From the NCBI RefSeq assembly GCF_000007145.1, contig NC_003902.1:3716497-3748496 (forward strand): a DNA stretch of 32,000 bases. Reading direction: 5' to 3'. The DNA comes from Xanthomonas campestris pv. campestris str. ATCC 33913. Lineage in GTDB: Bacteria > Pseudomonadota > Gammaproteobacteria > Xanthomonadales > Xanthomonadaceae. Of this stretch, positions 1,431 to 12,159 are shown one piece after another; position 1 is the first letter of the stretch, and every line of letters starts with the position of its first letter. The notes under the pieces are model-generated. The model searched no databases. It had not been told where the DNA came from and saw nothing but the letters and a program-made list of their open reading frames with translations. The translations under genes and the position numbers were made by a program.

Positions 1431-1480
1431 GGGTGGGCCCATAGAATGGAAAAGGAAATTAATACCTTGCACCCAGGATA

Positions 1481-4400
1481 TTGGGTCCGAGAAAACATCC
1501 TCAACCCCGAAATCTCACTGTGACCGAAGCGGCAAAGCTTATCGGCATAAGCCGTCCCGGGGTCTCAAATTTTCTCAACGCAAAGGTGTCAGCGACGCCT
1601 GATATGGCGGCGCGGCTGGAGCGAGTGTTTGGTGTACCAGCGAAAGATATTCTCAACCTCCAAAGCCTTTTTGAATCACAAGTTGCCAAGACCGAAGTTG
1701 CCTCTGTAAGTGTGCGTGCCTACGTAACGCCGTTTCTTGGCATTTCAGGCAATGAAATCACTGATTGGTTTACAAAGACAATCTTGGCCCGCACCCGGTT
1801 ATCGGTTCTCCTTCGTACGCTCATCAATTCGACGGGAGAGAATCTGGAGAGAGTTGACTTCCCCGGAAACGACGATGCGGAGCGACCTGGTTGGGATGGC
1901 TTCATTGAAGGTACCTTAGGCACGCCATGGATTCCTGCAGGTGTATCGGGCTGGGAGTTTGGAGTCAATGCTGACATCAAAGCTAAAGCTGACGGCGATT
2001 TTGCGAAAAGTGTGAAAGCGACTAGTAAGGCTGATCGTCAAAATATCACGTTTGTGTTCGTTACTCCTCGACGATGGCCTGGAAAGACTACGTGGCTTAG
2101 CACCATGCAAGCAAAGGGGCTTTGGAAGGACGTTCGCGCTTACGACGTTAGTGACTTGGAGCAATGGATGGAGACATCAATTGCAGCGCAGACATGGTTT
2201 GCTAATCAAACTGAGCGGCCATCGAGGGGCGTTCGAACTCTAGAAAAATGCTGGACTGATTGGGCGAATGTTGCAGAACCACCCCTTCATCCGTCGCTCT
2301 TCAGCACCGCGAACGAAGTCTGGCGCAGCCGTATAAAATTGTTCTTGTCGAAGTGTGATTCAGAGCCGCTCATTATAACGGCCGACTCAGTAGAAGAAGC
2401 CGTTGCGTTCTTGAGCCAGGTATTCAACGAGCCGGAGCTTGGCCATCATAAAGACCGCGTGCTTGTATTCGACGAGTGCGGTGTGCTACCAAAACTCGCC
2501 CAGAGTACAACCAATTTCATTGCCGTTGCTCATACGAGAGATGTCGAGCGGGAGTTTGGGTCCTATAGCAGGTCGTTGCGTACAATCGTGGTCTATCCGC
2601 GCAACGCCTCTAATGCTAATCCAGACATCATCTTAGAACCACTCGGTTATGAGGTTTTCGGCAAAGCACTTGAGGCGATGGATAAGGGGCGCGACGAAAT
2701 AACTAGGCTTGCCAATGCCTCAGGGCGCTCTCTCACTGTACTGCGGCGTATACTTTCGACAATCCCAGCAATCAAAACTCCCGTGTGGGCGGCCAATCAT
2801 CAAGCTGCTTCCAGCCTTGTCCCGCTCGCACTTTTAGGAACTTGGGATACGCGTAACAATGCGGACCAGGCAACTCTTTCGCTGCTTGCGGGTGGCCTTT
2901 CCTTTGATGCGCTAGAAAGACGAGTGCAGGAACTGCTACAGTTTAACGATTCACCCGTGTGGTCCCTGGGCAACTATCGCGGAGTGATTTCCAAGATTGA
3001 CTCTTTATTTGCGATTGCTGGGGCTGTCACCCTAGGTGACCTCAACCACTTTTTCGACATCGCAAAGAGCGTTTTGGGCGAGGACGACCCCGCTCTTGAT
3101 CTTCCAGAGAAAGAGCGTTGGGCGGCGACCATTCATGGTAAGAAGCGCGAGTTCTCCTCAGCTCTCCGCGAAGGCATTTCTGAAACATTAGTTTTGCTCG
3201 CAGTTCATGGGAAGCATCTTTTTGGGAAACGTCTTGGTTTTGATGGCGAACTCGCTGCTGGCCGCCTGGTAGGGGAACTTCTAGAGCCGCTTGAAACACG
3301 GAAGCTGGAAGCGAACGATCGCGATCTTCCTCTATATGCGGAAGCTGCCCCAAAGGAGTTCTTGAGCATTATTGAGCGTGACCTCAGATCAGAGAGTCCT
3401 TGCACACTGGGATTACTGCGCCCTGTCGCCGCAGGCGTCTTTGCCTCACCTAAACGAACAGGTCTTCTCTGGGCGCTTGAAGGGCTGGCTTGGAATCCCT
3501 CAACTTTTCCTCGCGTTGTCAAAATTCTGGGGCGACTCTCCGAAGTCAAGATTGACGACAACTGGGCTAATAAGCCCGTTAACTCACTGGAGTCGATCTT
3601 CAGAGCATGGATGCCGCAGACGGCAGCTGATCATGACTCGCGGTTGAAGGCCATGCGGATGCTAATGGAGAAGCATCCACCAATAGGCTGGGAGATCTGC
3701 CTCCAGCAGTTCGGCGACTTTGGGCGCGGCATCGGCCATTACACCCAAAAGCCTAAATGGAGGCCAGATGGATACGGCTTTGGCGAGCCCCTCTCCACGT
3801 GGGGACCTATCAACAACTTTGTTCGCGAAATGGTAGAGATGGCGCTGACGATGCCGTTCTACACAGTCAATATGATTTGCGATCTTATCGCGCGGCTCCA
3901 TGCGCTGTCTGTCAAAGATCAAGAAAAAGTCTGGAAGATCATCGACGAATGGCGGAAGGCTGGAGCAAGTGACGCCGACATCTCCCGTGTGCGTGAAAAA
4001 ATCCGTGTGACCGTACTGTCACGACGCGGCCGGAAAGCTGCTAACGAGTGCGAACAAGCCACCCTTTCGAAAATCGCAAGGGCAGTTTACGCGTCGATGG
4101 AGCCGACCGACGCCGTTAATAAGCACGAATGGTTGTTCCGGCAGGGCTGGGTCGAAGAGTCTGCAGATGAACTCTCGGGTGAAGAGCTTGATTTTCAGGC
4201 TCGCGAACGCCGGATTGAAAAACTCCGATTCGAAGCCTTGACCGAGATCGCCGCCAACAATGGTTTAAATGGAATTTTTAATCTTGCCATGAAGGGCAAC
4301 TCTCACCGGCAAATCGGCTGGTATCTGGCGCGTGGAATCTTGAACACTCAGCAACTCGAAGAGTTGATACTGCAGTGCCTTAGCAAAGGCAACGAGAATA

Positions 4401-5545
4401 TCATTCATAACAGCATCGCAAGTGGTGTTTTGGGGGCGCTTGATCAAGAGCAGCACAACGCGCTCTTTATGAGCTTGCGCAACCAAATGTCTGAGCAGGA
4501 TGCTCTTCGCATGCTTCTTCTCTCACCCTATTGTAGAGCGACGTGGGCACTCGCAGGGCAGCTTTCAGCTGAGGCCAATCGTAGCTATTGGCGCGATGTC
4601 TCCCCAGAGTTCATATTTGATGCGCCAGACCAGAATAACGAGAGTATCGGACATCTGCTTAGCGTGGGAAGACCGCGTGCCGCCTTCTCCTCGGTGCACT
4701 TCAAGCTTGATGAGGTGCGTCCCGAACTTCTGGTTCGGATGCTTTCCGAAATACCAAAAGACAGTAATGATAAGGAAGGTGAATACCAGTTTCAAAGCTA
4801 CGAAATCCAGCAAGCTTTCAAGCTCTTAAACCGGAATCCTGATGTGCTTTTCGAGGAGAAGGCAGGGTTGGAGTTTATGTTTATTGATGTCTTAGCTCGT
4901 TCGCACCGTGGTGGTGATGGGCACCAAATTCCGAACCTCGAACGCTACGTCGAGGATCATCCCGAAATGTTCGTGCAGGCAATAGTTTGGACGTACAAGC
5001 GCAAGACACCCGGGGATGATCCTGCAGAGTTCAGTACGGGAGAAGCTAGGGAGCGGTTGGCTATACAGGGCCATCGCTTGTTAGATGCTCTAGAGCGCAT
5101 TCCCGGACAGGATGAGGTCACAGAAGAGCTGGCCCGTCAGAAGCTGACCGAGTGGATAGCTATCGTTCGAAGGCGTTGTTCCGAACTCGACCGCGCAGAG
5201 ATAGCCGACGTTTGCCTTGGCAAGTTTCTGGCATGCGCTCCTGTGGGGAAGGATGGAGTGTGGCCTAATGAGGTTGTTCGCGATGTTATGGAGGATCTGG
5301 AATCCGAAGAAATATCCCGTGGCTCTCATACTGGACTCTACAACTCCCGTGGTGCGCATTGGCGAGGCGAAGGAGGAAGTCAGGAGAGGGAGCTCGCAGC
5401 TAAGTATCGCAGATGGGCAGAGGCCCTGAACTTTTCCCACCCGTTCGTTTCTTCGTCTCTTCTTACATCCATGGTTGAGACCTACGAGTATGAGGCGGAG
5501 CGGCAGGATGCGGAGGCAGGTATTCGGCGACGCCTTCGGCACTGA
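1481..5545 (+). CDS. Giant (1354 aa) protein: N-terminal HigA/XRE-type HTH fused to ~1270 aa of unassigned, largely helical sequence
   Basis: A single uninterrupted ORF. The N-terminus TVTEAAKLIGISRPGVSNFLNAKVSATPDMAARLERVFGVPAKDILNLQ parallels the HigA antitoxin HTH (compare ...LLTGKAALTPEMAIKLS...WLNLQ). No canonical Walker A or other catalytic signature was recognised. The probable true start is the ATG at 1446 in another frame (see findings). Confidence 0.8.
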   Translation: MGPRKHPQPRNLTVTEAAKLIGISRPGVSNFLNAKVSATPDMAARLERVFGVPAKDILNLQSLFESQVAKTEVASVSVRAYVTPFLGISGNEITDWFTKTILARTRLSVLLRTLINSTGENLERVDFPGNDDAERPGWDGFIEGTLGTPWIPAGVSGWEFGVNADIKAKADGDFAKSVKATSKADRQNITFVFVTPRRWPGKTTWLSTMQAKGLWKDVRAYDVSDLEQWMETSIAAQTWFANQTERPSRGVRTLEKCWTDWANVAEPPLHPSLFSTANEVWRSRIKLFLSKCDSEPLIITADSVEEAVAFLSQVFNEPELGHHKDRVLVFDECGVLPKLAQSTTNFIAVAHTRDVEREFGSYSRSLRTIVVYPRNASNANPDIILEPLGYEVFGKALEAMDKGRDEITRLANASGRSLTVLRRILSTIPAIKTPVWAANHQAASSLVPLALLGTWDTRNNADQATLSLLAGGLSFDALERRVQELLQFNDSPVWSLGNYRGVISKIDSLFAIAGAVTLGDLNHFFDIAKSVLGEDDPALDLPEKERWAATIHGKKREFSSALREGISETLVLLAVHGKHLFGKRLGFDGELAAGRLVGELLEPLETRKLEANDRDLPLYAEAAPKEFLSIIERDLRSESPCTLGLLRPVAAGVFASPKRTGLLWALEGLAWNPSTFPRVVKILGRLSEVKIDDNWANKPVNSLESIFRAWMPQTAADHDSRLKAMRMLMEKHPPIGWEICLQQFGDFGRGIGHYTQKPKWRPDGYGFGEPLSTWGPINNFVREMVEMALTMPFYTVNMICDLIARLHALSVKDQEKVWKIIDEWRKAGASDADISRVREKIRVTVLSRRGRKAANECEQATLSKIARAVYASMEPTDAVNKHEWLFRQGWVEESADELSGEELDFQARERRIEKLRFEALTEIAANNGLNGIFNLAMKGNSHRQIGWYLARGILNTQQLEELILQCLSKGNENIIHNSIASGVLGALDQEQHNALFMSLRNQMSEQDALRMLLLSPYCRATWALAGQLSAEANRSYWRDVSPEFIFDAPDQNNESIGHLLSVGRPRAAFSSVHFKLDEVRPELLVRMLSEIPKDSNDKEGEYQFQSYEIQQAFKLLNRNPDVLFEEKAGLEFMFIDVLARSHRGGDGHQIPNLERYVEDHPEMFVQAIVWTYKRKTPGDDPAEFSTGEARERLAIQGHRLLDALERIPGQDEVTEELARQKLTEWIAIVRRRCSELDRAEIADVCLGKFLACAPVGKDGVWPNEVVRDVMEDLESEEISRGSHTGLYNSRGAHWRGEGGSQERELAAKYRRWAEALNFSHPFVSSSLLTSMVETYEYEAERQDAEAGIRRRLRH

Positions 5546-6297
5546 GTGGGCTTGAGCTGTGCGGGGTCAGTCTTCTGATGTCGGAACTAACCCCGCTATC
5601 CAGTACACTTTGAGCCATTAGCTGCTACTTATGAATGGCTAATGGTCCAAAGTAAGCGCTCGCGGTGATTGTGTAATCGGCTCTTCAACGTTACTGAGAT
5701 CTCTATAGCTTTAAACTAGCAGGTGAGCCTCAGATATGAATAGTTTGATGTTTGTTTGCAGCGCGCCACGTTAGTTGGTCAAGTTGCAATTTTTTTGATA
5801 GCGGCGTTCACTATTTTTTACACAGTCATTCCTTTATATCAGCAGAGTAACTTAGGCGGTACGATGAGCACTAATGGTTGTTTTGATAATCCATAATTTA
5901 GCTGACTCATCGCATGTGTCACAGTGACTTTTTTAACTCGGGATCTTCGAAAGAATAGCCACCTGATTTGCTGGATTCAATAGTACGGATGTGCTATGGG
6001 CAGCATGAGCCAAGCCCTCTATGTTAATCAAGCAGTTCAGCTTCCGAAGTGAGTGGGTTTAGAAGACATTGAGAAATGCGCAGTTTGCATGTCGACTTGC
6101 TTGATTGCTCAGTGCCAGCATTTCAATGGTATTTATACTAGATATCCTATCTTGAGTTGATGCGCATTTCGTCGACATATCATGAATTGCGTCAGGAAAT
6201 TCATCGCTAAGCTACGCGATTATAGGAGCCAGCAACCGAACCAGCCTTGCCCTCTGCTGTTGGCACAGATGATTGTGACTGTTAAGGAGTCTTGCGG

Positions 6298-7182
6298 ATG
6301 GAGCTGCGACATCTGCGCTGCTTTGTGGTTTTGGCCGAGGAACTGCACTTCACAAGAGCAGCTGAACGCCTCCATATCGAACAATCTCCTTTATCCAGGA
6401 CTATCAAGGAACTGGAAGACGACTTGGGCGCTTTACTGTTCAACCGTGATCGAAGAGGAACGCGGCTGACCGATGCCGGCAAAGCATTTCTTCTGGACGT
6501 ACGCCGTTTATTTACCACTTTGGATCAAGCCCGAGAAAATGTGAAGGCGGTTTCCGCGGGCTTCCGGGTAAGTATGCGGATTGCAGTATCAGACGGAGCG
6601 ATCGATTCCAGATTATCTGATCTTCTTGCACGTTGTCGCGAGGAGGAGCCTGATGTTGAAATTCGCCTCACAGAAGTCACGCTCTCTGAGCTCCTCCATG
6701 GACTAAGGTCGGGAGACTTCACCATTGGGTTCACACACACAGAAGAGGTTGGCGATGGCATTGTTGCTGAACCCATTTGGCATGCACGAATGGTTGCAGT
6801 GATACCAGCCCGTCATCCGCTACTCGCTTTCAAAGAAGTGCCTATCGAAGAACTTCTCCGCGCCCCATTGATCATGTGGAACCACCAAGCCTATGAGGGC
6901 TACGATAAGGCCTTTACCAAGCTGTTGCGAGGCTTGGATGAGAAACCAAACGTCATCGAGCGCGCAGCTTCGCTCGACGTTATGCTAGCTCTCGTTGCGG
7001 CTGGTTACGGGATTGGCCTCGCATCTGGCGCGAAGCTGGAACCGTGCAAGCATTCTGATATCGTCATCCGTCCATTGGCAAATCAATCAGCGGTGATTAC
7101 GACGTACATGCTGACAGCTGCCAATGCTGCGCCTTCAATCTCTGTGGATCGCTTCACAACACGTTTGAAAGATAGAAATTAG
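6298..7182 (+). CDS. LysR-type transcriptional regulator (full length)
   Basis: MELRHLRCFVVLAEELHFTRAAERLHIEQSPLSRTIKELEDDLGALLFNR is a classic LTTR winged HTH, followed by a substrate-binding domain (...LVAAGYGIGLAS...). AAGGAG lies 8 nt upstream of the ATG at 6298. Confidence 0.9.
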   Translation: MELRHLRCFVVLAEELHFTRAAERLHIEQSPLSRTIKELEDDLGALLFNRDRRGTRLTDAGKAFLLDVRRLFTTLDQARENVKAVSAGFRVSMRIAVSDGAIDSRLSDLLARCREEEPDVEIRLTEVTLSELLHGLRSGDFTIGFTHTEEVGDGIVAEPIWHARMVAVIPARHPLLAFKEVPIEELLRAPLIMWNHQAYEGYDKAFTKLLRGLDEKPNVIERAASLDVMLALVAAGYGIGLASGAKLEPCKHSDIVIRPLANQSAVITTYMLTAANAAPSISVDRFTTRLKDRN

Positions 7183-7209: not shown

Positions 7210-7518
7210 TCACCCTTCTGAGTCAGAGTAAAGAATGCTTTCAGTAGCAGTCATCAGGTTGGCTGCACTGTCGTTTAATGCGATGGATACCCGCAAAATC
7301 AACGCTAGTGTAGGCATGTGTTGCCCCCGCTCGATCTTTCCCATGTGAGAGCGCTCAATGCCGGCGAGGGTTGCCAGCTCTTCTTGAGATATGTCGCGCG
7401 CAGTCCGTGCGGCACGTACAGCCTTCCCGAACGCAATCGCTGGCTCAGCTTCATAGGTGGTGGCGCCCATTGGGCGTCCTGGTTTCATTGTGCGCTTCTG
7501 CATCGGCAAAAGCGTCAC
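7210..7518 (-). CDS. XRE (Cro/C1)-family HTH transcriptional regulator
   Basis: ISQEELATLAGIERSHMGKIERGQHMPTLALILRVSIAL is a typical XRE HTH. The start is uncertain: GTG at 7518, or ATG at 7503 or 7488. Confidence 0.8.
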   Translation of the reverse strand: MTLLPMQKRTMKPGRPMGATTYEAEPAIAFGKAVRAARTARDISQEELATLAGIERSHMGKIERGQHMPTLALILRVSIALNDSAANLMTATESILYSDSEG

Positions 7519-7553: not shown

Positions 7554-7605
7554 CTTTGCATGATGTTTGGTGACTTTTCCCTTACATAGTCCGGAGGGGC
7601 AGACC

Positions 7606-8256
7606 ATGAACCAGGATTGTTGCTCGCGATTGATCAGAGTTGCCGCCGCTCCAGCAGTGCTGTCCCCAGAGTTGGCTGATCTCCTTGCGCTTCAGCGAAC
7701 AGAAGAGCCTGAAACACCTGTGCTATTGCAAGAGGTCACCCAGGACGTGCTCACGACTAGCATCCTCGGAGGAACCTACGATCTAGGCATCGGTTGGCCG
7801 GTAGCCACCGATGCCCTAGCCGTCCTGCCACTGTGGCGCGACCAATTAGCCGTCGCTTTGCCCGCTCGTTCCCCACTGCTGGCAAAGCGTGCTATTTCAT
7901 TACAGGTAACACTCAGTTACCCATTGATTTGTTGGCATCCGAATCCTTGTGTTGAAGGGCTTGATACGGAGGCAGAAACGGATGATCGAAGCGCTCATCT
8001 ATGCCGGGTTGCAGTCACATCCTTCGATCTGCTTACGGTACTCGTTGCGGCTGGCTATGGCATCGGTATTGCGCCGAAGAGCTACATAGTCAGTGCCCGT
8101 AATCGAGGTATCGTCATGCGCCAGATCCTCGGCACTCCTCGTTGGGTTTACACCTGTCTTTTTCGATCGGCTAATGCTCTCTCACCTGCAGTTGAAAGGT
8201 TTGTCGAGCGAGCGTCACGGGTAGCGATATCCACGGAAAACAAGCGTTTCAGGTGA
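7606..8256 (+). CDS. LysR substrate-binding-domain-only protein (no N-terminal HTH); possibly a truncated LTTR
   Basis: The sequence aligns by eye with the effector domain of the LysR at 6298 (...LPARSPLL..., ...LVAAGYGIGIAP...). It begins directly at the linker/RD-I region. GGAGGGG lies ~10 nt upstream of the ATG at 7606. The ORF track start at 7567 is a TTG. Confidence 0.65.
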   Translation: MNQDCCSRLIRVAAAPAVLSPELADLLALQRTEEPETPVLLQEVTQDVLTTSILGGTYDLGIGWPVATDALAVLPLWRDQLAVALPARSPLLAKRAISLQVTLSYPLICWHPNPCVEGLDTEAETDDRSAHLCRVAVTSFDLLTVLVAAGYGIGIAPKSYIVSARNRGIVMRQILGTPRWVYTCLFRSANALSPAVERFVERASRVAISTENKRFR

Positions 8257-8326: not shown

Positions 8327-9328
8327 CTACAGAGAGGGCACAGTCGGCCGCTGCCGAGCTTCTTGCTCCGGAATCTGGTGTGGAGGCTGCTGCTGCGCGC
8401 GCTCCGTTACCGACTCACTGCTTTGCAGTTTTCGCACCTTTTCGAAAGATTGCTCAACTGGCGTCTGTATCGCCTCCTGAGTCGGCATGTATGCGCGCAG
8501 GGTTGCAGGGTTGTCTGAAGCGCCCTGCAGAATGAAGATTTTTTCGCCGGGCGCTGCGGCATTGGTCTGCTTGCTCAGTGCGATTTCGTCAACGCTACTG
8601 AAGTTGTTTTGCTTGGCGAGCGCATACACACTGGCGGTAATGCGGGCGCTGTCTGCAGCTTGCACGTGACCGGAATTTTTTAGTCCTTCGATCTTCTCGC
8701 GTATCTGCTGCATCAAAGCGTGATCCGGATGACCCTGGCGAATTGGATCGTTGGCCGGGGTACGTTCTAGCTCCCGGTTCTGGGCTGGTTGCTCGCGGTA
8801 GCGCAGTTCCTCTATACGTTCCTCTGACAGCATACGGTTGCCAAGGCCCGGCTCGACCCTGCCAGGGAAACCCTCTACCGGTAAACTCATCAATTCGCCA
8901 AAGGTTCGGAAGGCGGAATTGCTATTAACGGTGTCACCAAACACCTTGAAGCCATACTTGGGATAGTTCAGATTCAGTGCGTTGAGTTCTGGCATCGCTT
9001 TAACTGCAGTGTTCCAACGCGCCAGGATCTCATCCTTATCGCCGATGACGACGGTGCGTGATTGCTGGTTATCCTCAATGAAGGTACTTCGACTCACGTC
9101 GGTGCCAACTGAGGCTGCATAGGCACCATCGAGCGCAAGGTTCCAAGCACGAAGGGAGTGCCTAGCCTCGTCAGTACCTATTGTGAGTGCTTCGCCGGTT
9201 TGTCGATCAGTGGCCAGGCCGTGTAACTCAGCTAGAGCTTTACCCTGCTCATCGCGCAAAACCCAGAAATCGTGTCCAGCTACACCAAGAACATTGAGTG
9301 ATCTTGCTTCAATCGTATACTTCGGCAT
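8327..9328 (-). CDS. Candidate X-T4SS effector (X-Tfe-like): unassigned N-terminal ~190-aa domain plus C-terminal XVIPCD-like secretion domain
   Basis: The C-terminal ~140 aa read GHPDHALMQQIREKIEGL...SVDEIALSKQT...GEKIFILQGASDNPATLRAYMPTQEAIQTPVEQSFEKV, then a Q/P-rich tail (QQQPPHQIPEQEARQRP). This matches the motif order I know from XVIPCD domains. Recognition is by eye only. Confidence 0.65.
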   Translation of the reverse strand: MPKYTIEARSLNVLGVAGHDFWVLRDEQGKALAELHGLATDRQTGEALTIGTDEARHSLRAWNLALDGAYAASVGTDVSRSTFIEDNQQSRTVVIGDKDEILARWNTAVKAMPELNALNLNYPKYGFKVFGDTVNSNSAFRTFGELMSLPVEGFPGRVEPGLGNRMLSEERIEELRYREQPAQNRELERTPANDPIRQGHPDHALMQQIREKIEGLKNSGHVQAADSARITASVYALAKQNNFSSVDEIALSKQTNAAAPGEKIFILQGASDNPATLRAYMPTQEAIQTPVEQSFEKVRKLQSSESVTERAQQQPPHQIPEQEARQRPTVPSL

Positions 9329-9964: not shown

Positions 9965-11845
9965 TCAAAATTCAGACATGCATTCGGCAATCCTGTTTAT
10001 GGGGACTCGCTTCTCAACGACTGGCGTCGTTGCTTCAGATACGGCCCGGCAAACCGCCTCAACCATCGCTTGCTGATTGTCCGAAGTGAGCGCCTCAATA
10101 GGCGACTTGCCATCAAGTTCCTCGCGAGGTCGCGTCAAGGCGTAGTAGATATCCCATGTATCAACGCCACGGTGCAGACGCTTGAGTACCGCCTGCACCA
10201 AGCGGCGCTTGAACATGTTGAGTTGCCACACCGGAACCCGCTGCCCCTTGTTGCCCAACTGAATTGAAAGTAGGTTGCGGGCCTGGATCTCGTAAGTAAT
10301 CCACCGCCGCGATTTGCCCGCGAGCTTGGCATAGTCCGCGACGACCAGGTTGTCGGGCCCTTCAAAAATGTCCAGTACCTCCAATCGCTCTCGCTGGACC
10401 TCAGAGATCTTCGGTAGAGCGTATTCAGGCATTTGCACTGCAGAGAGCCGCTGAGTCCCGGTGCCGACAGCTGGCATCGTTTGCTCATTGGGTGCTACCA
10501 GCATGATGGGAGCGTGTTGGCCCAACGCCGGCAGCGGCGTGACTTTCTGACCGGCAATTGTGGGAACGCCCTGAAGGTGGATGGTGAGGTGCGTGCTGGC
10601 AATCTGAACCTGATTTTGCTCGAACAGATCCAGCCGATCAGCCCAGTCCTGCATCATTAGCCGACGCTGTTCAACGTACTCGGCATGGTTGTAGGTGGCG
10701 CTGATGCGATTGGGGTCAGCATGTGAGAGTTGCGCGTCGACCCAGACCTTGGGGTAACCCAGCTCATTGAGGGCGGTTGAAATCGTCGCCCTGATGCCGT
10801 GACCGGTGAGACGACCGTCATAGCCCAGCCGCTTGATCGCACGGTTGACCGTGTTTTCGCTCATGCGGGCAGTGATTCGCTTCACGCCTGGGAAAAGGTA
10901 GGTCTGCGCTGGTTTGAACAGGTCGAGCATGTGCCGCACGATCTCGATGGCTTGCACGGGCAGCGGCACGATGTAGGGCGGGATGTCAGTTACGCGTTTT
11001 CGCTTCTTCTTGGTCAGCATCTTGCGCTGCTTGAGCGACATCACCGGGATGATCCATAAACCTTGTTCCAGATCGAATTGGTCCGGCGTGGCCAAACGTA
11101 GTTCGCCTGTGCGTACACCCGTCAGCAGCAACAGGCGAATGGCCAATTGGGTCATCTGCATGCCGCGGTACTTGCGAAGTGTCTGCAGAAACAGGGGGAG
11201 CTCGGGCATACGCAGGAATGGGTTGTGCTCAACGGGCGGCAACGGAACAGCGACCACGTGTAGATCGATGGCGGGGTGCTCGACCATGCCCGGAATGACC
11301 ACCATGGCGTAGTCGGCGAGTTGCTTGAGCCAGGTGCGCACCTTTTCGGCGACGGACAGTGACTCGCGTTTCTCGATCCGGCCGATCACCTCCAGTAGCA
11401 CCGGACGGGTGATCTCGTAGATGGTGTAGCGTTTGAGGTAAGGGAATACATCTTTTTTGAACACGCGGCGGATCTGTTCCAGCGAACTTTGACGACCTTC
11501 TTCCAGGGTCAGTTGCCGGTGTTCCATCCACTTTTCGTAGACCGCCATGAAGGTGTTTTCGCCAGCCAACCGGATGGCTTGGCGTTTTTGCTTTCGGTCG
11601 GTGCGCGGGTTGATGCCCTTGGCGACGAGGGCACGGGCCTGGTCACGAAATTCGCGCGCGTCGCGCAGAGAGAGTTCGGGATAGCTGCCAAGCGAAATTC
11701 GGGCACGTTGTCCAACCCAGGTGTAGCGGAAGTGCCAGGCTTTGCCGCCAACAGGGGAGACGTAGAGGAACAAACCGTCGAAGTCTGCGAGGGTGTAGGG
11801 CTTGTCGGAAGCCTTTGCTTGCCGGACGACCATATCTGTGAGCAT
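9965..11845 (-). CDS. int: P4-type tyrosine integrase with ~215-aa C-terminal extension
   Basis: N-terminus MLTDMVVRQAKASDKPYTLADFDGLFLYVSPVGGKAWHFRY is an arm-type DNA-binding domain. Catalytic motifs are LTGVRTGEL, GHGIRAT and ATYNHAEY. GGAG lies upstream of the ATG at 11845 (the ORF track TTG at 11854 is unlikely). The core ends near residue 410 of 626. Confidence 0.9.
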   Translation of the reverse strand: MLTDMVVRQAKASDKPYTLADFDGLFLYVSPVGGKAWHFRYTWVGQRARISLGSYPELSLRDAREFRDQARALVAKGINPRTDRKQKRQAIRLAGENTFMAVYEKWMEHRQLTLEEGRQSSLEQIRRVFKKDVFPYLKRYTIYEITRPVLLEVIGRIEKRESLSVAEKVRTWLKQLADYAMVVIPGMVEHPAIDLHVVAVPLPPVEHNPFLRMPELPLFLQTLRKYRGMQMTQLAIRLLLLTGVRTGELRLATPDQFDLEQGLWIIPVMSLKQRKMLTKKKRKRVTDIPPYIVPLPVQAIEIVRHMLDLFKPAQTYLFPGVKRITARMSENTVNRAIKRLGYDGRLTGHGIRATISTALNELGYPKVWVDAQLSHADPNRISATYNHAEYVEQRRLMMQDWADRLDLFEQNQVQIASTHLTIHLQGVPTIAGQKVTPLPALGQHAPIMLVAPNEQTMPAVGTGTQRLSAVQMPEYALPKISEVQRERLEVLDIFEGPDNLVVADYAKLAGKSRRWITYEIQARNLLSIQLGNKGQRVPVWQLNMFKRRLVQAVLKRLHRGVDTWDIYYALTRPREELDGKSPIEALTSDNQQAMVEAVCRAVSEATTPVVEKRVPINRIAECMSEF

Positions 11846-12085
11846 GCGTACCAACTCCTGATGCTGCGAGTTGGATGCGATGTTTGTTCTCAGGTGGCCT
11901 GCTCTTCCAGCAACAATGCGGAACGGGTGTTCACCGCATTTTGTACCGCAAAACGTACCGATTTGTACCGGTAGTCAGTGGATTTCGCTGGACGTCACTG
12001 GACTGAAGAAGAGGGGTAATTCAGAACCAGATCAGTCACTTACAACGTTCCTTGGCGCTGGGTGGACGTCAGTGGAAAGTCGAAG

Positions 12086-12159
12086 TGGAGCGGGCGATGG
12101 GAATCGAACCCACGTCAGTAGCTTGGGAAGCTACAGCTCTACCATTGAGCTACGCCCGC
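12086..12159 (-). tRNA. tRNA-Gly (anticodon CCC), CCA encoded
   Basis: The reverse complement folds as a cloverleaf: GCGGGCG-TA-GCTC-AATGGTA-GAGC-T-GTAGC-TTCCCAA-GCTAC-TGAC-GTGGG-TTCGATT-CCCAT-CGCCCGC-TCCA. Length 74 nt. Confidence 0.95.

Follow-up and report, generated by a model that had tools for sequence, protein, structure and literature searches.

What a protein of 1354 residues does, when sequence searches recognise little beyond its N-terminal head, is the question raised by a stretch of the Xanthomonas campestris pv. campestris str. ATCC 33913 genome (NC_003902.1, positions 3,716,497 to 3,748,496), 32,000 nucleotides long and here called the window. A single long open reading frame (ORF) is present at positions 1481-5545 of its plus strand, and a first-pass annotation made from the letters alone had described the product as an orphan giant protein, a HigA-type antitoxin head fused to a body with no recognisable enzymatic function. 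On balance, and with modest confidence, analogy with characterised systems favours reading the family of this protein as an autoregulated, nucleotide-independent, Avs/NLR-like single-gene abortive-infection nuclease, a defence function that we infer. The features of the giant gene, all on the plus strand and given with ORF residue numbers, are as follows.

1481-5545, plus strand: giant ORF as called mechanically, with a TTG start and 1354 amino acids, stop codon included
1481-1705, plus strand: HigA-type XRE helix-turn-helix (HTH) head, residues ~1-75, with the first ~25 residues missing in the window copy
1742-2266, plus strand: restriction-endonuclease-like module, residues ~88-262, defined by model topology and by conserved D139, G140, W158, E159, K169 and D173
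2267-2635, plus strand: pseudo-NTPase (nucleoside triphosphatase) domain, residues ~263-385, in which a strand PLIITA, a D-S turn and a helix replace Walker A and a VLVFDE strand replaces Walker B
2636-3016, plus strand: helical lid and winged-helix-like part, residues ~386-512, with the invariant motif SGRSLTVLRR; boundaries approximate, from the model's secondary structure
3017-5542, plus strand: HEAT/ARM-like alpha-solenoid of ~840 amino acids, residues ~513-1354, the presumed sensor (model pLDDT, predicted local distance difference test score, 87)
3323-3685, plus strand: Avs8A/PD-lambda-4A-like segment, residues ~615-735 (PADLOC PDLC03991, E 1.2e-4 in the window copy)
5321-5533, plus strand: conserved C-terminal block, residues 1281-1351, like a tetratricopeptide repeat (TPR), with the motif RGxxxRGEGGxQERxLAxKYRxWA

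The protein is no orphan. The full sequence gave 2072 significant matches among clusters at 90% identity and the body 6098 among clusters at 50% identity, 2592 of them at E<=1e-30, and the form without HTH matched phrog_18693 end to end (E 2.7e-146). Nearly all members are 1350-1370 amino acids long (about 1,360), and a scan of species-representative genomes found at least 583 loci, distributed over Proteobacteria, Acidobacteriota, Bacteroidota, Firmicutes, Cyanobacteria, Planctomycetota, Chloroflexota, Gemmatimonadota and further phyla. Named entries are mostly called 'HigA family addiction module antitoxin', a name that covers 6% of the protein, and no paper on the family was found in the literature, whether by protein accession or by keyword. 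The family is thus widespread, no study of it was found, and its cataloguing by database name as an antitoxin is a mislabelling; thousands of genomes misname a protein of ~150 kDa after 6% of its length, for which the present analysis supplies an architecture that can be tested.

The ~1270 residues behind the head had been left unassigned, and no Pfam or NCBIfam family was found to cover them, since sequence searches of Pfam, NCBIfam and the PDB returned the HTH only. To this extent the absence of a recognisable enzymatic body was borne out; predicted structures, in contrast, assign folds throughout the body. Two AlphaFold2 models were obtained from alignments of 85 sequences, covering residues 76-760 (pLDDT 89.4) and 560-1354 (pLDDT 87.1). 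Foldseek comparison of the former with the PDB ranked SAMD9 (E 1.7e-5), EfAvs5 (4e-5) and Avs4 (7e-5) highest, all with probability 1.0, and the next matches were a STAND-TPR protein (6mfv), Apaf-1, Dark, CED-4, NLRP2, NLRC4 and RFC clamp-loader subunits. This ranking and the model's pLDDT of 89 support a predicted core fold composed of a nucleotide-binding domain, a helical domain and a winged-helix domain (NBD-HD-WHD).

The Walker A motif GxxxxGK[ST] was absent from that core in 387 of 387 sequences, its position being occupied by P-[LF]-V-I-A-A-D-S-x-[ED]-E-A-L-A-F. The window copy has PLIITADSVEEAV there, with a two-residue turn between strand and helix, and S303 and E306 are conserved in 98-99% of the sequences. 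The strand at the place of Walker B (hhhhD[DE]) is hydrophobic, but D331 occurs in just 52% of the sequences and the residue after it is variable, so that no Walker B motif could be assigned. The pattern without a P-loop was also seen in relatives of 24-29% identity carried on Rhizobium, Shewanella and Adhaeribacter plasmids. The ratio of nonsynonymous to synonymous substitution rates (dN/dS) was 0.06-0.11 over residues 263-512, indicating strong purifying selection. From the model, the core NTPase domain is read as a structural pseudo-NTPase; the degenerate P-loop and the Walker-B-like VLVFDE, both noticed at the first pass, hold for the window copy, and the loss of the P-loop is family-wide.

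In the N-terminal module, DSSP analysis of the AlphaFold2 model (ORF numbering being model residue + 75) gave the topology alpha-beta-beta-beta-alpha-beta, formed by a helix at residues 101-118, strands at 122-126, 140-144 and 154-160, a helix at 166-180 and a strand at 189-194. D139, G140, W158 and K169 were invariant in the 387 sequences, down to 32% identity, E159 and D173 were each present in 386 of them, and the motifs persisted in the branches of 24-29% identity. D139 immediately precedes the second strand and E159 closes the third, the places expected in a PD-(D/E)xK nuclease, and K169-x3-D173, on the helix that follows E159, is conserved throughout. The resulting pattern D139/E159/K169/D173 may resemble the GDXnERKX3D motif of ERCC4/XPF nucleases. 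Local structure matches in the viral structure library BFVD were to 'Restriction endonuclease' (probability 0.98, E 0.19) and 'endodeoxyribonuclease I' (T7-endonuclease-I-like; probability 0.84, E 0.38), the E-values being weak. The module's dN/dS of 0.06 was the lowest in the protein. Taken from the model, these features make it probable that the module is a nuclease.

The C-terminal ~850 residues were all helical in the AlphaFold2 model, in line with the helix-rich region of ~900 residues described before, and Foldseek matched residues 560-1354 to the HEAT/ARM solenoids importin-beta, SF3B1, CRM1 and CAND1. Near the start of this solenoid, the PADLOC model PD-Lambda-4_A matched 19 of 33 diverse members collinearly over ~110 amino acids (best E 2.6e-9). 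No full-length match to this model was found among the 33 members; the similarity extends over ~110 amino acids at 13-33 bits, and 14 members gave no match. Avs8A is the sole known defence protein with detectable sequence similarity to the giant-protein family. PD-lambda-4A has been renamed Avs8A and is a STAND protein with an Mrr nuclease, triggered by HK97-fold major capsid proteins (bioRxiv 10.1101/2025.07.02.662641; PMC13581612). The conserved C-terminal block gave weak matches to kinesin-light-chain TPRs. Together with the Foldseek placements, the weak but recurrent PD-Lambda-4_A matches support the resemblance to STAND/Avs proteins that had been suggested from the order of DNA-binding head, small effector, degenerate NTPase and helical sensor.

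The head itself was identified as had been proposed. Pfam HTH_3 matched at E 3e-8, TIGR02607 (antidote_HigA) matched the truncated window copy at E 1.4e-9 with 37.6 bits, under the cut-off of 47.7 bits, and a family profile matched the solved structures of YbaQ, HigA and VapI at E 4e-12 to 1e-7. An element that the first-pass annotation had overlooked lies upstream of the gene:

1395-1429, no strand assigned: operator-like palindrome GTGTAAGG-N5-CCTTACAC (1395-1415), found by an inverted-repeat search, followed by a 7-nucleotide duplication of ATTACAC

The core GTAAGGTG...CCTTACAC was unchanged in three close relatives amid divergent intergenic DNA. The arrangement TGTA-N6-18-TACA was found within 160 nucleotides upstream of the gene in 55 of 71 species-level loci versus 1.4% of control windows, the controls being random windows drawn from the same loci, and this argues for autorepression by the HTH. 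A perfect palindrome, GTGTAGCGCTACAC, was present in many loci, including those of Paenibacillus, Metasolibacillus, Planctomycetaceae and Gemmatimonadaceae. Judged from these sequences, the fused HTH probably represses the gene's own promoter through the predicted operator. In the window the tandem duplication ATTACAC ATTACAC at 1416-1429 is not shared by the three closest relatives, and a promoter and terminator scan gave counts no higher than in shuffled sequence. In a branch of 29% identity, the member on the Rhizobium leguminosarum plasmid pRLN3 (L012, 5596-9660) carries a different N-terminal HTH, which matches the PADLOC 'Control_protein' model (E 5.8e-13) and not HigA; this suggests that the HTH head was gained more than once.

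An HTH joined to a STAND-like core and a helical repeat region also brings to mind a ligand-responsive transcription factor of the MalT/AfsR/GutR type, in which the solenoid would sense, the core would switch and the HTH output would control other genes. HTH outputs are well known among STAND proteins (MalT, AfsR), the operator is conserved, several loci lie among metabolic genes and the HTH was present in 119 of 133 near-full-length representatives. We nevertheless consider this explanation unlikely. Besides the gene's own promoter no other conserved target of the HTH was visible, the one conserved operator being that of the gene itself and no neighbouring targets being conserved. Moreover, 10 of the 133 representatives (~7.5%) lack the HTH and keep the whole body, the D/E/K/D module is the most constrained part of the protein and would not be needed by a pure regulator, and relatives carry a HetE-N ORF or a different module in place of the N-terminal one.

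Such exchanges were seen on two plasmids. A Shewanella plasmid protein retains the sensor and the C-terminal block and has a different N-terminal module, and on a Buttiauxella plasmid a HetE-N ORF (PF20701, E 1.5e-40) immediately precedes a sensor-only homologue of 922 amino acids. The latter pair, on pBTX_57 (L015, 4582-7676), consists of the HetE-N ORF of 106 amino acids and, 5 nucleotides further on, the winged-helix/solenoid homologue; it represents a two-gene variant or else a fusion that has split, and a group II intron lies just upstream of it.

The gene otherwise travels alone, every flanking ORF family being confined to at most 4 of 54 loci, and it occurs at unrelated genomic sites. 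In E. coli it is located at one end of an integrative element that also carries AlpA, NikA and TrbL, and it adjoins a PIN protein. Neighbours elsewhere were ApeA at one locus; DndB, Schlafen/AlbA, an E2/ThiF/JAB gene, HTH with M78 peptidase and HNH at another; DUF4238 with ImmA/IrrE at a third; Abi and superinfection-exclusion genes at a fourth; and, at other loci, AbiEii or SMC-like ATPases with DUF4276. Mobile and defence contexts thus recur among the homologues, in keeping with the first-pass annotation. A type II toxin-antitoxin system of the HigB-HigA kind was considered and rejected, there being no toxin partner in the flanks; phage or plasmid cargo was likewise rejected as the main habitat, with 1 phage record and 26 plasmids.

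The HigA-type head, and a single gene at variable sites and in mobile islands, would also suit a selfish addiction module, that is, a fusion of toxin and antitoxin in cis whose nuclease is held in check by the HigA-like head or by the solenoid, the gene serving to stabilise the islands that host it and not to detect phage. Fused toxin-antitoxin defence proteins such as CapRel are among those cited in PMC13581612. This explanation appears improbable, however, as no HigB-like partner is conserved, members without HTH retain the body, a single polypeptide offers no differential-stability mechanism for post-segregational killing, plasmid carriage is rare, and in X. campestris the gene has been disrupted repeatedly and the island not lost.

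Under the favoured reading of the family as an Avs/NLR-like abortive-infection nuclease, a mechanism may be drawn by analogy with Avs3, Avs4 and Avs8; the presence and conservation of the palindrome, for their part, are comparative results. The ~840-residue HEAT-like solenoid would bind a trigger, most likely a phage protein, and this binding would lift autoinhibition and lead to oligomerisation via the NBD-HD-WHD scaffold, which would act without nucleoside triphosphate (NTP) because the nucleotide-binding loop has been lost. Oligomerisation would gather the N-terminal restriction-endonuclease-like domains, with D139, E159, K169 and D173, so that nucleic acid would be cut and the infection aborted. 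The HigA-type HTH would then be no antitoxin; it is a candidate binder of GTGTA-N-TACAC in the gene's own promoter and may keep a dangerous protein at a low level. A further, more tentative proposal joins the two ends of the molecule: an NLR-like, nucleotide-independent receptor may be its own repressor, the trigger both oligomerising the P-loop-less scaffold, which fires the non-canonical nuclease, and freeing the HTH from GTGTA-N-TACAC. If this were true, a self-repressing receptor would couple sensing and induction in one polypeptide.

Several observations weigh against the reading as a defence nuclease. The residue at +2 from E159 is G161 and not lysine (motif E159-F-G161); this had been recognised before, whereas the invariant K169 and D173 had been missed, and because these two residues are kept on the next helix the module need not be inactive. 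A profile of the module alone matched no nuclease family and no Pfam or PDB sequence. Because no sequence profile ties the module to a nuclease family, we infer its activity from the predicted topology and the invariant residues. The TM-scores to STAND proteins were low (0.13-0.24), which is usual when several domains are matched at once, and the reading would require a STAND scaffold to oligomerise without nucleotide. Several homologues are flanked by housekeeping genes, and neither mobile nor defence genes adjoin them; plasmids (26 of 72,556) and phages (1 of 50,697) rarely carry the family. No defence model of PADLOC 2.0 covers the giant protein, and no experiments on any family member were found.

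Should the protein be an immune sensor, a whole family would be built on a STAND scaffold without the nucleotide-binding loop, which bears on the need for NTP binding in NLR-type activation, to which KpAvs8 is so far the one natural exception. It would also show a fused HTH restraining a toxic sensor, and the operator concerned is kept in lineages as far apart as Proteobacteria and Firmicutes. The family would in that case be one of the most widely distributed single-gene immune sensors that no catalogue yet lists and would give defence-finding tools a very common single-gene system.

The copy in the window is damaged at its 5' end, where the following features were located.

1446-1523, plus strand: original 5' end of the giant gene, now out of frame, with ATG and 24 codons (MEKEINTLHPGYWVRENILNPEISL), then TGA
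1503-1504, plus strand: site of a 1-nucleotide deletion, AAA to AA, the cause of the frameshift, from DNA alignment with L017, L019 and L005

In the alignment of the window copy with these three intact relatives, ATCCTC-AACCCCGAAAT stands against ATCCTCAAACCTCGAAAT, so that one A is missing, and the view that the ATG at 1446 needs repair proved correct. Homologues begin with MEKE..LHPGYWVRENILKPRNLTVTEAAKL, the consensus start being MEKExxxLHPGYWVRENILKPRNLTVTEAAKL. The frame opened at 1446 closes at TGA 1521-1523, the long ORF runs on in another frame (...PRNLTVTEAAKL), and the first ~25 residues of the HTH are cut off by the deletion. The GTG at 1520, the start of database entries of 1341 amino acids, overlaps the TGA of the upstream frame (GTGA, 1520-1523) in a geometry of termination-reinitiation coupling. 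In view of this geometry the 1341-residue product might still be translated; a protein without the first HTH helix, made from GTG 1520 by stop-start coupling, is a speculative proposal.

All eight of the listed X. campestris alleles that include an N-terminus begin 3' of the frameshift site, at MTEAAKL or MGPRKHPQPRNL, and further breaks were found near residues 521, 700 and 1139 in other strains of the species at >99.6% identity. Five X. campestris fragments from complete genomes (P0404, P0407, P0410, P0411 and P0414) carry foreign residues at ends located at ~521, ~700 and ~1139, and two of them, P0407 and P0410, share the identical terminal residues GNL. From these sequences it looks as if the same element had been inserted repeatedly into the giant gene in X. 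campestris. The frameshifted starts and the other broken alleles show that the giant gene is decaying in X. campestris, the window copy being frameshifted and in a lineage that is losing the gene; since the dN/dS between the window copy and its closest intact relatives is 0.10, the damage is recent.

It is somewhat probable that the window copy is a non-functional pseudogene persisting through a recent frameshift, which is compatible with any reading of the family. The deletion at 1503-1504, the starts of all eight N-terminal alleles beyond it, the breaks elsewhere in the species and IS3 fragments directly 5' of the gene speak for it. Against this, the other 1341-1354 codons are unbroken, the GTGA overlap could permit re-initiation, the dN/dS of 0.10 speaks for constraint, though it reflects mostly the history before the frameshift, and the natural members without HTH show that the body can work headless. 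The possibility of a decaying remnant, raised at the first pass, applies in part to the window copy. For this X. campestris strain the message is a smaller one: its copy is damaged and is probably being lost.

The gene lies in a genomic island, of which one boundary is within the window.

9965-12159, minus strand: island boundary, with a P4-type tyrosine integrase (9965-11854) and tRNA-Gly(CCC) (12086-12159)

The content of guanine plus cytosine (GC) is ~51% to the left of this boundary, where the giant gene is situated, versus ~65% to its right, and the left end of the island falls outside the window. Regulators of the LysR and XRE types, a type-IV-secretion effector gene with an XVIPCD domain and fragments of IS3-family transposases also lie in the low-GC stretch. 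At 22-837 and 964-1200, directly 5' of the giant gene, are two partial ORFs for IS3-family transposases (rve/rve_3 domains), apparently from different copies. At 6292-7182 stands a full-length LysR gene, and after it come the XRE regulator on the opposite strand (7210-7518) and then a LysR substrate-domain ORF that has no HTH (7567-8256) and resembles a truncated duplicate. The ORF of 333 amino acids at 8327-9328 on the minus strand contains the XVIPCD domain (PF20410, E 7.7e-25), a signature of Xanthomonadales type-IV-secretion antibacterial effectors. The integrase ORF codes for 629 amino acids on the minus strand, with a catalytic domain that ends near residue 393, and has either a long unassigned C-terminal extension or been called over-long mechanically. 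No near-identical DNA was found on plasmids.

Compared with known systems, the giant protein shares with the HigA antitoxins (TIGR02607; PDB 2icp, 4mcx and 6f8s) the HTH fold of its first ~85 residues and, as the sequences suggest, probably the binding of a palindromic operator in its own promoter. The family proteins are, however, 1354-1366 amino acids long versus ~100 for HigA, with no HigB among the annotated neighbours and no flanking family in more than 4 of 54 loci. Like MalT and AfsR, it is a single polypeptide that joins an HTH to a STAND-like core and a helical repeat sensor, and it differs from them in that the HTH is dispensable in ~7.5% of the family representatives. Proteins of the MalT/AfsR type bind and hydrolyse ATP and are not known to have a nuclease-like module. 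Avs4, Avs5 and SAMD9 (8dgf, 9jap and 9zjr) match residues 76-760 best in structure (E 1.7e-5 to 1e-4, probability 1.0) and likewise place an effector at the N-terminus, an NBD-HD-WHD core in the middle and a helical sensor at the C-terminus of one polypeptide, but their sequence identity to the giant protein is 8-10%. They have canonical Walker motifs, and we know of no autoregulatory HTH in any of the three.

Avs8 resembles the family in length (~1260 residues without the HTH versus a profile of 1283 positions), in the collinear position of the shared segment and in the order of an N-terminal module of restriction-endonuclease type, a STAND-like core and a helical sensor. The natural Avs8 homologue KpAvs8, compared here by its description, also lacks nucleotide-binding residues (Nature 2026, PMC13581612). 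The giant family departs from Avs8 in the absence of Walker A from 387 sequences and three relatives of 24-29% identity, in a nuclease-like module without Mrr sequence match, in having no Avs8B-like partner and no conserved upstream or downstream ORF at the 54 loci, and in the addition of a HigA-type HTH and an upstream operator. From the known Avs proteins as a group it therefore differs in three respects: no P-loop in the sequences examined, a non-canonical nuclease-like site and a fused HTH that is probably self-repressing.

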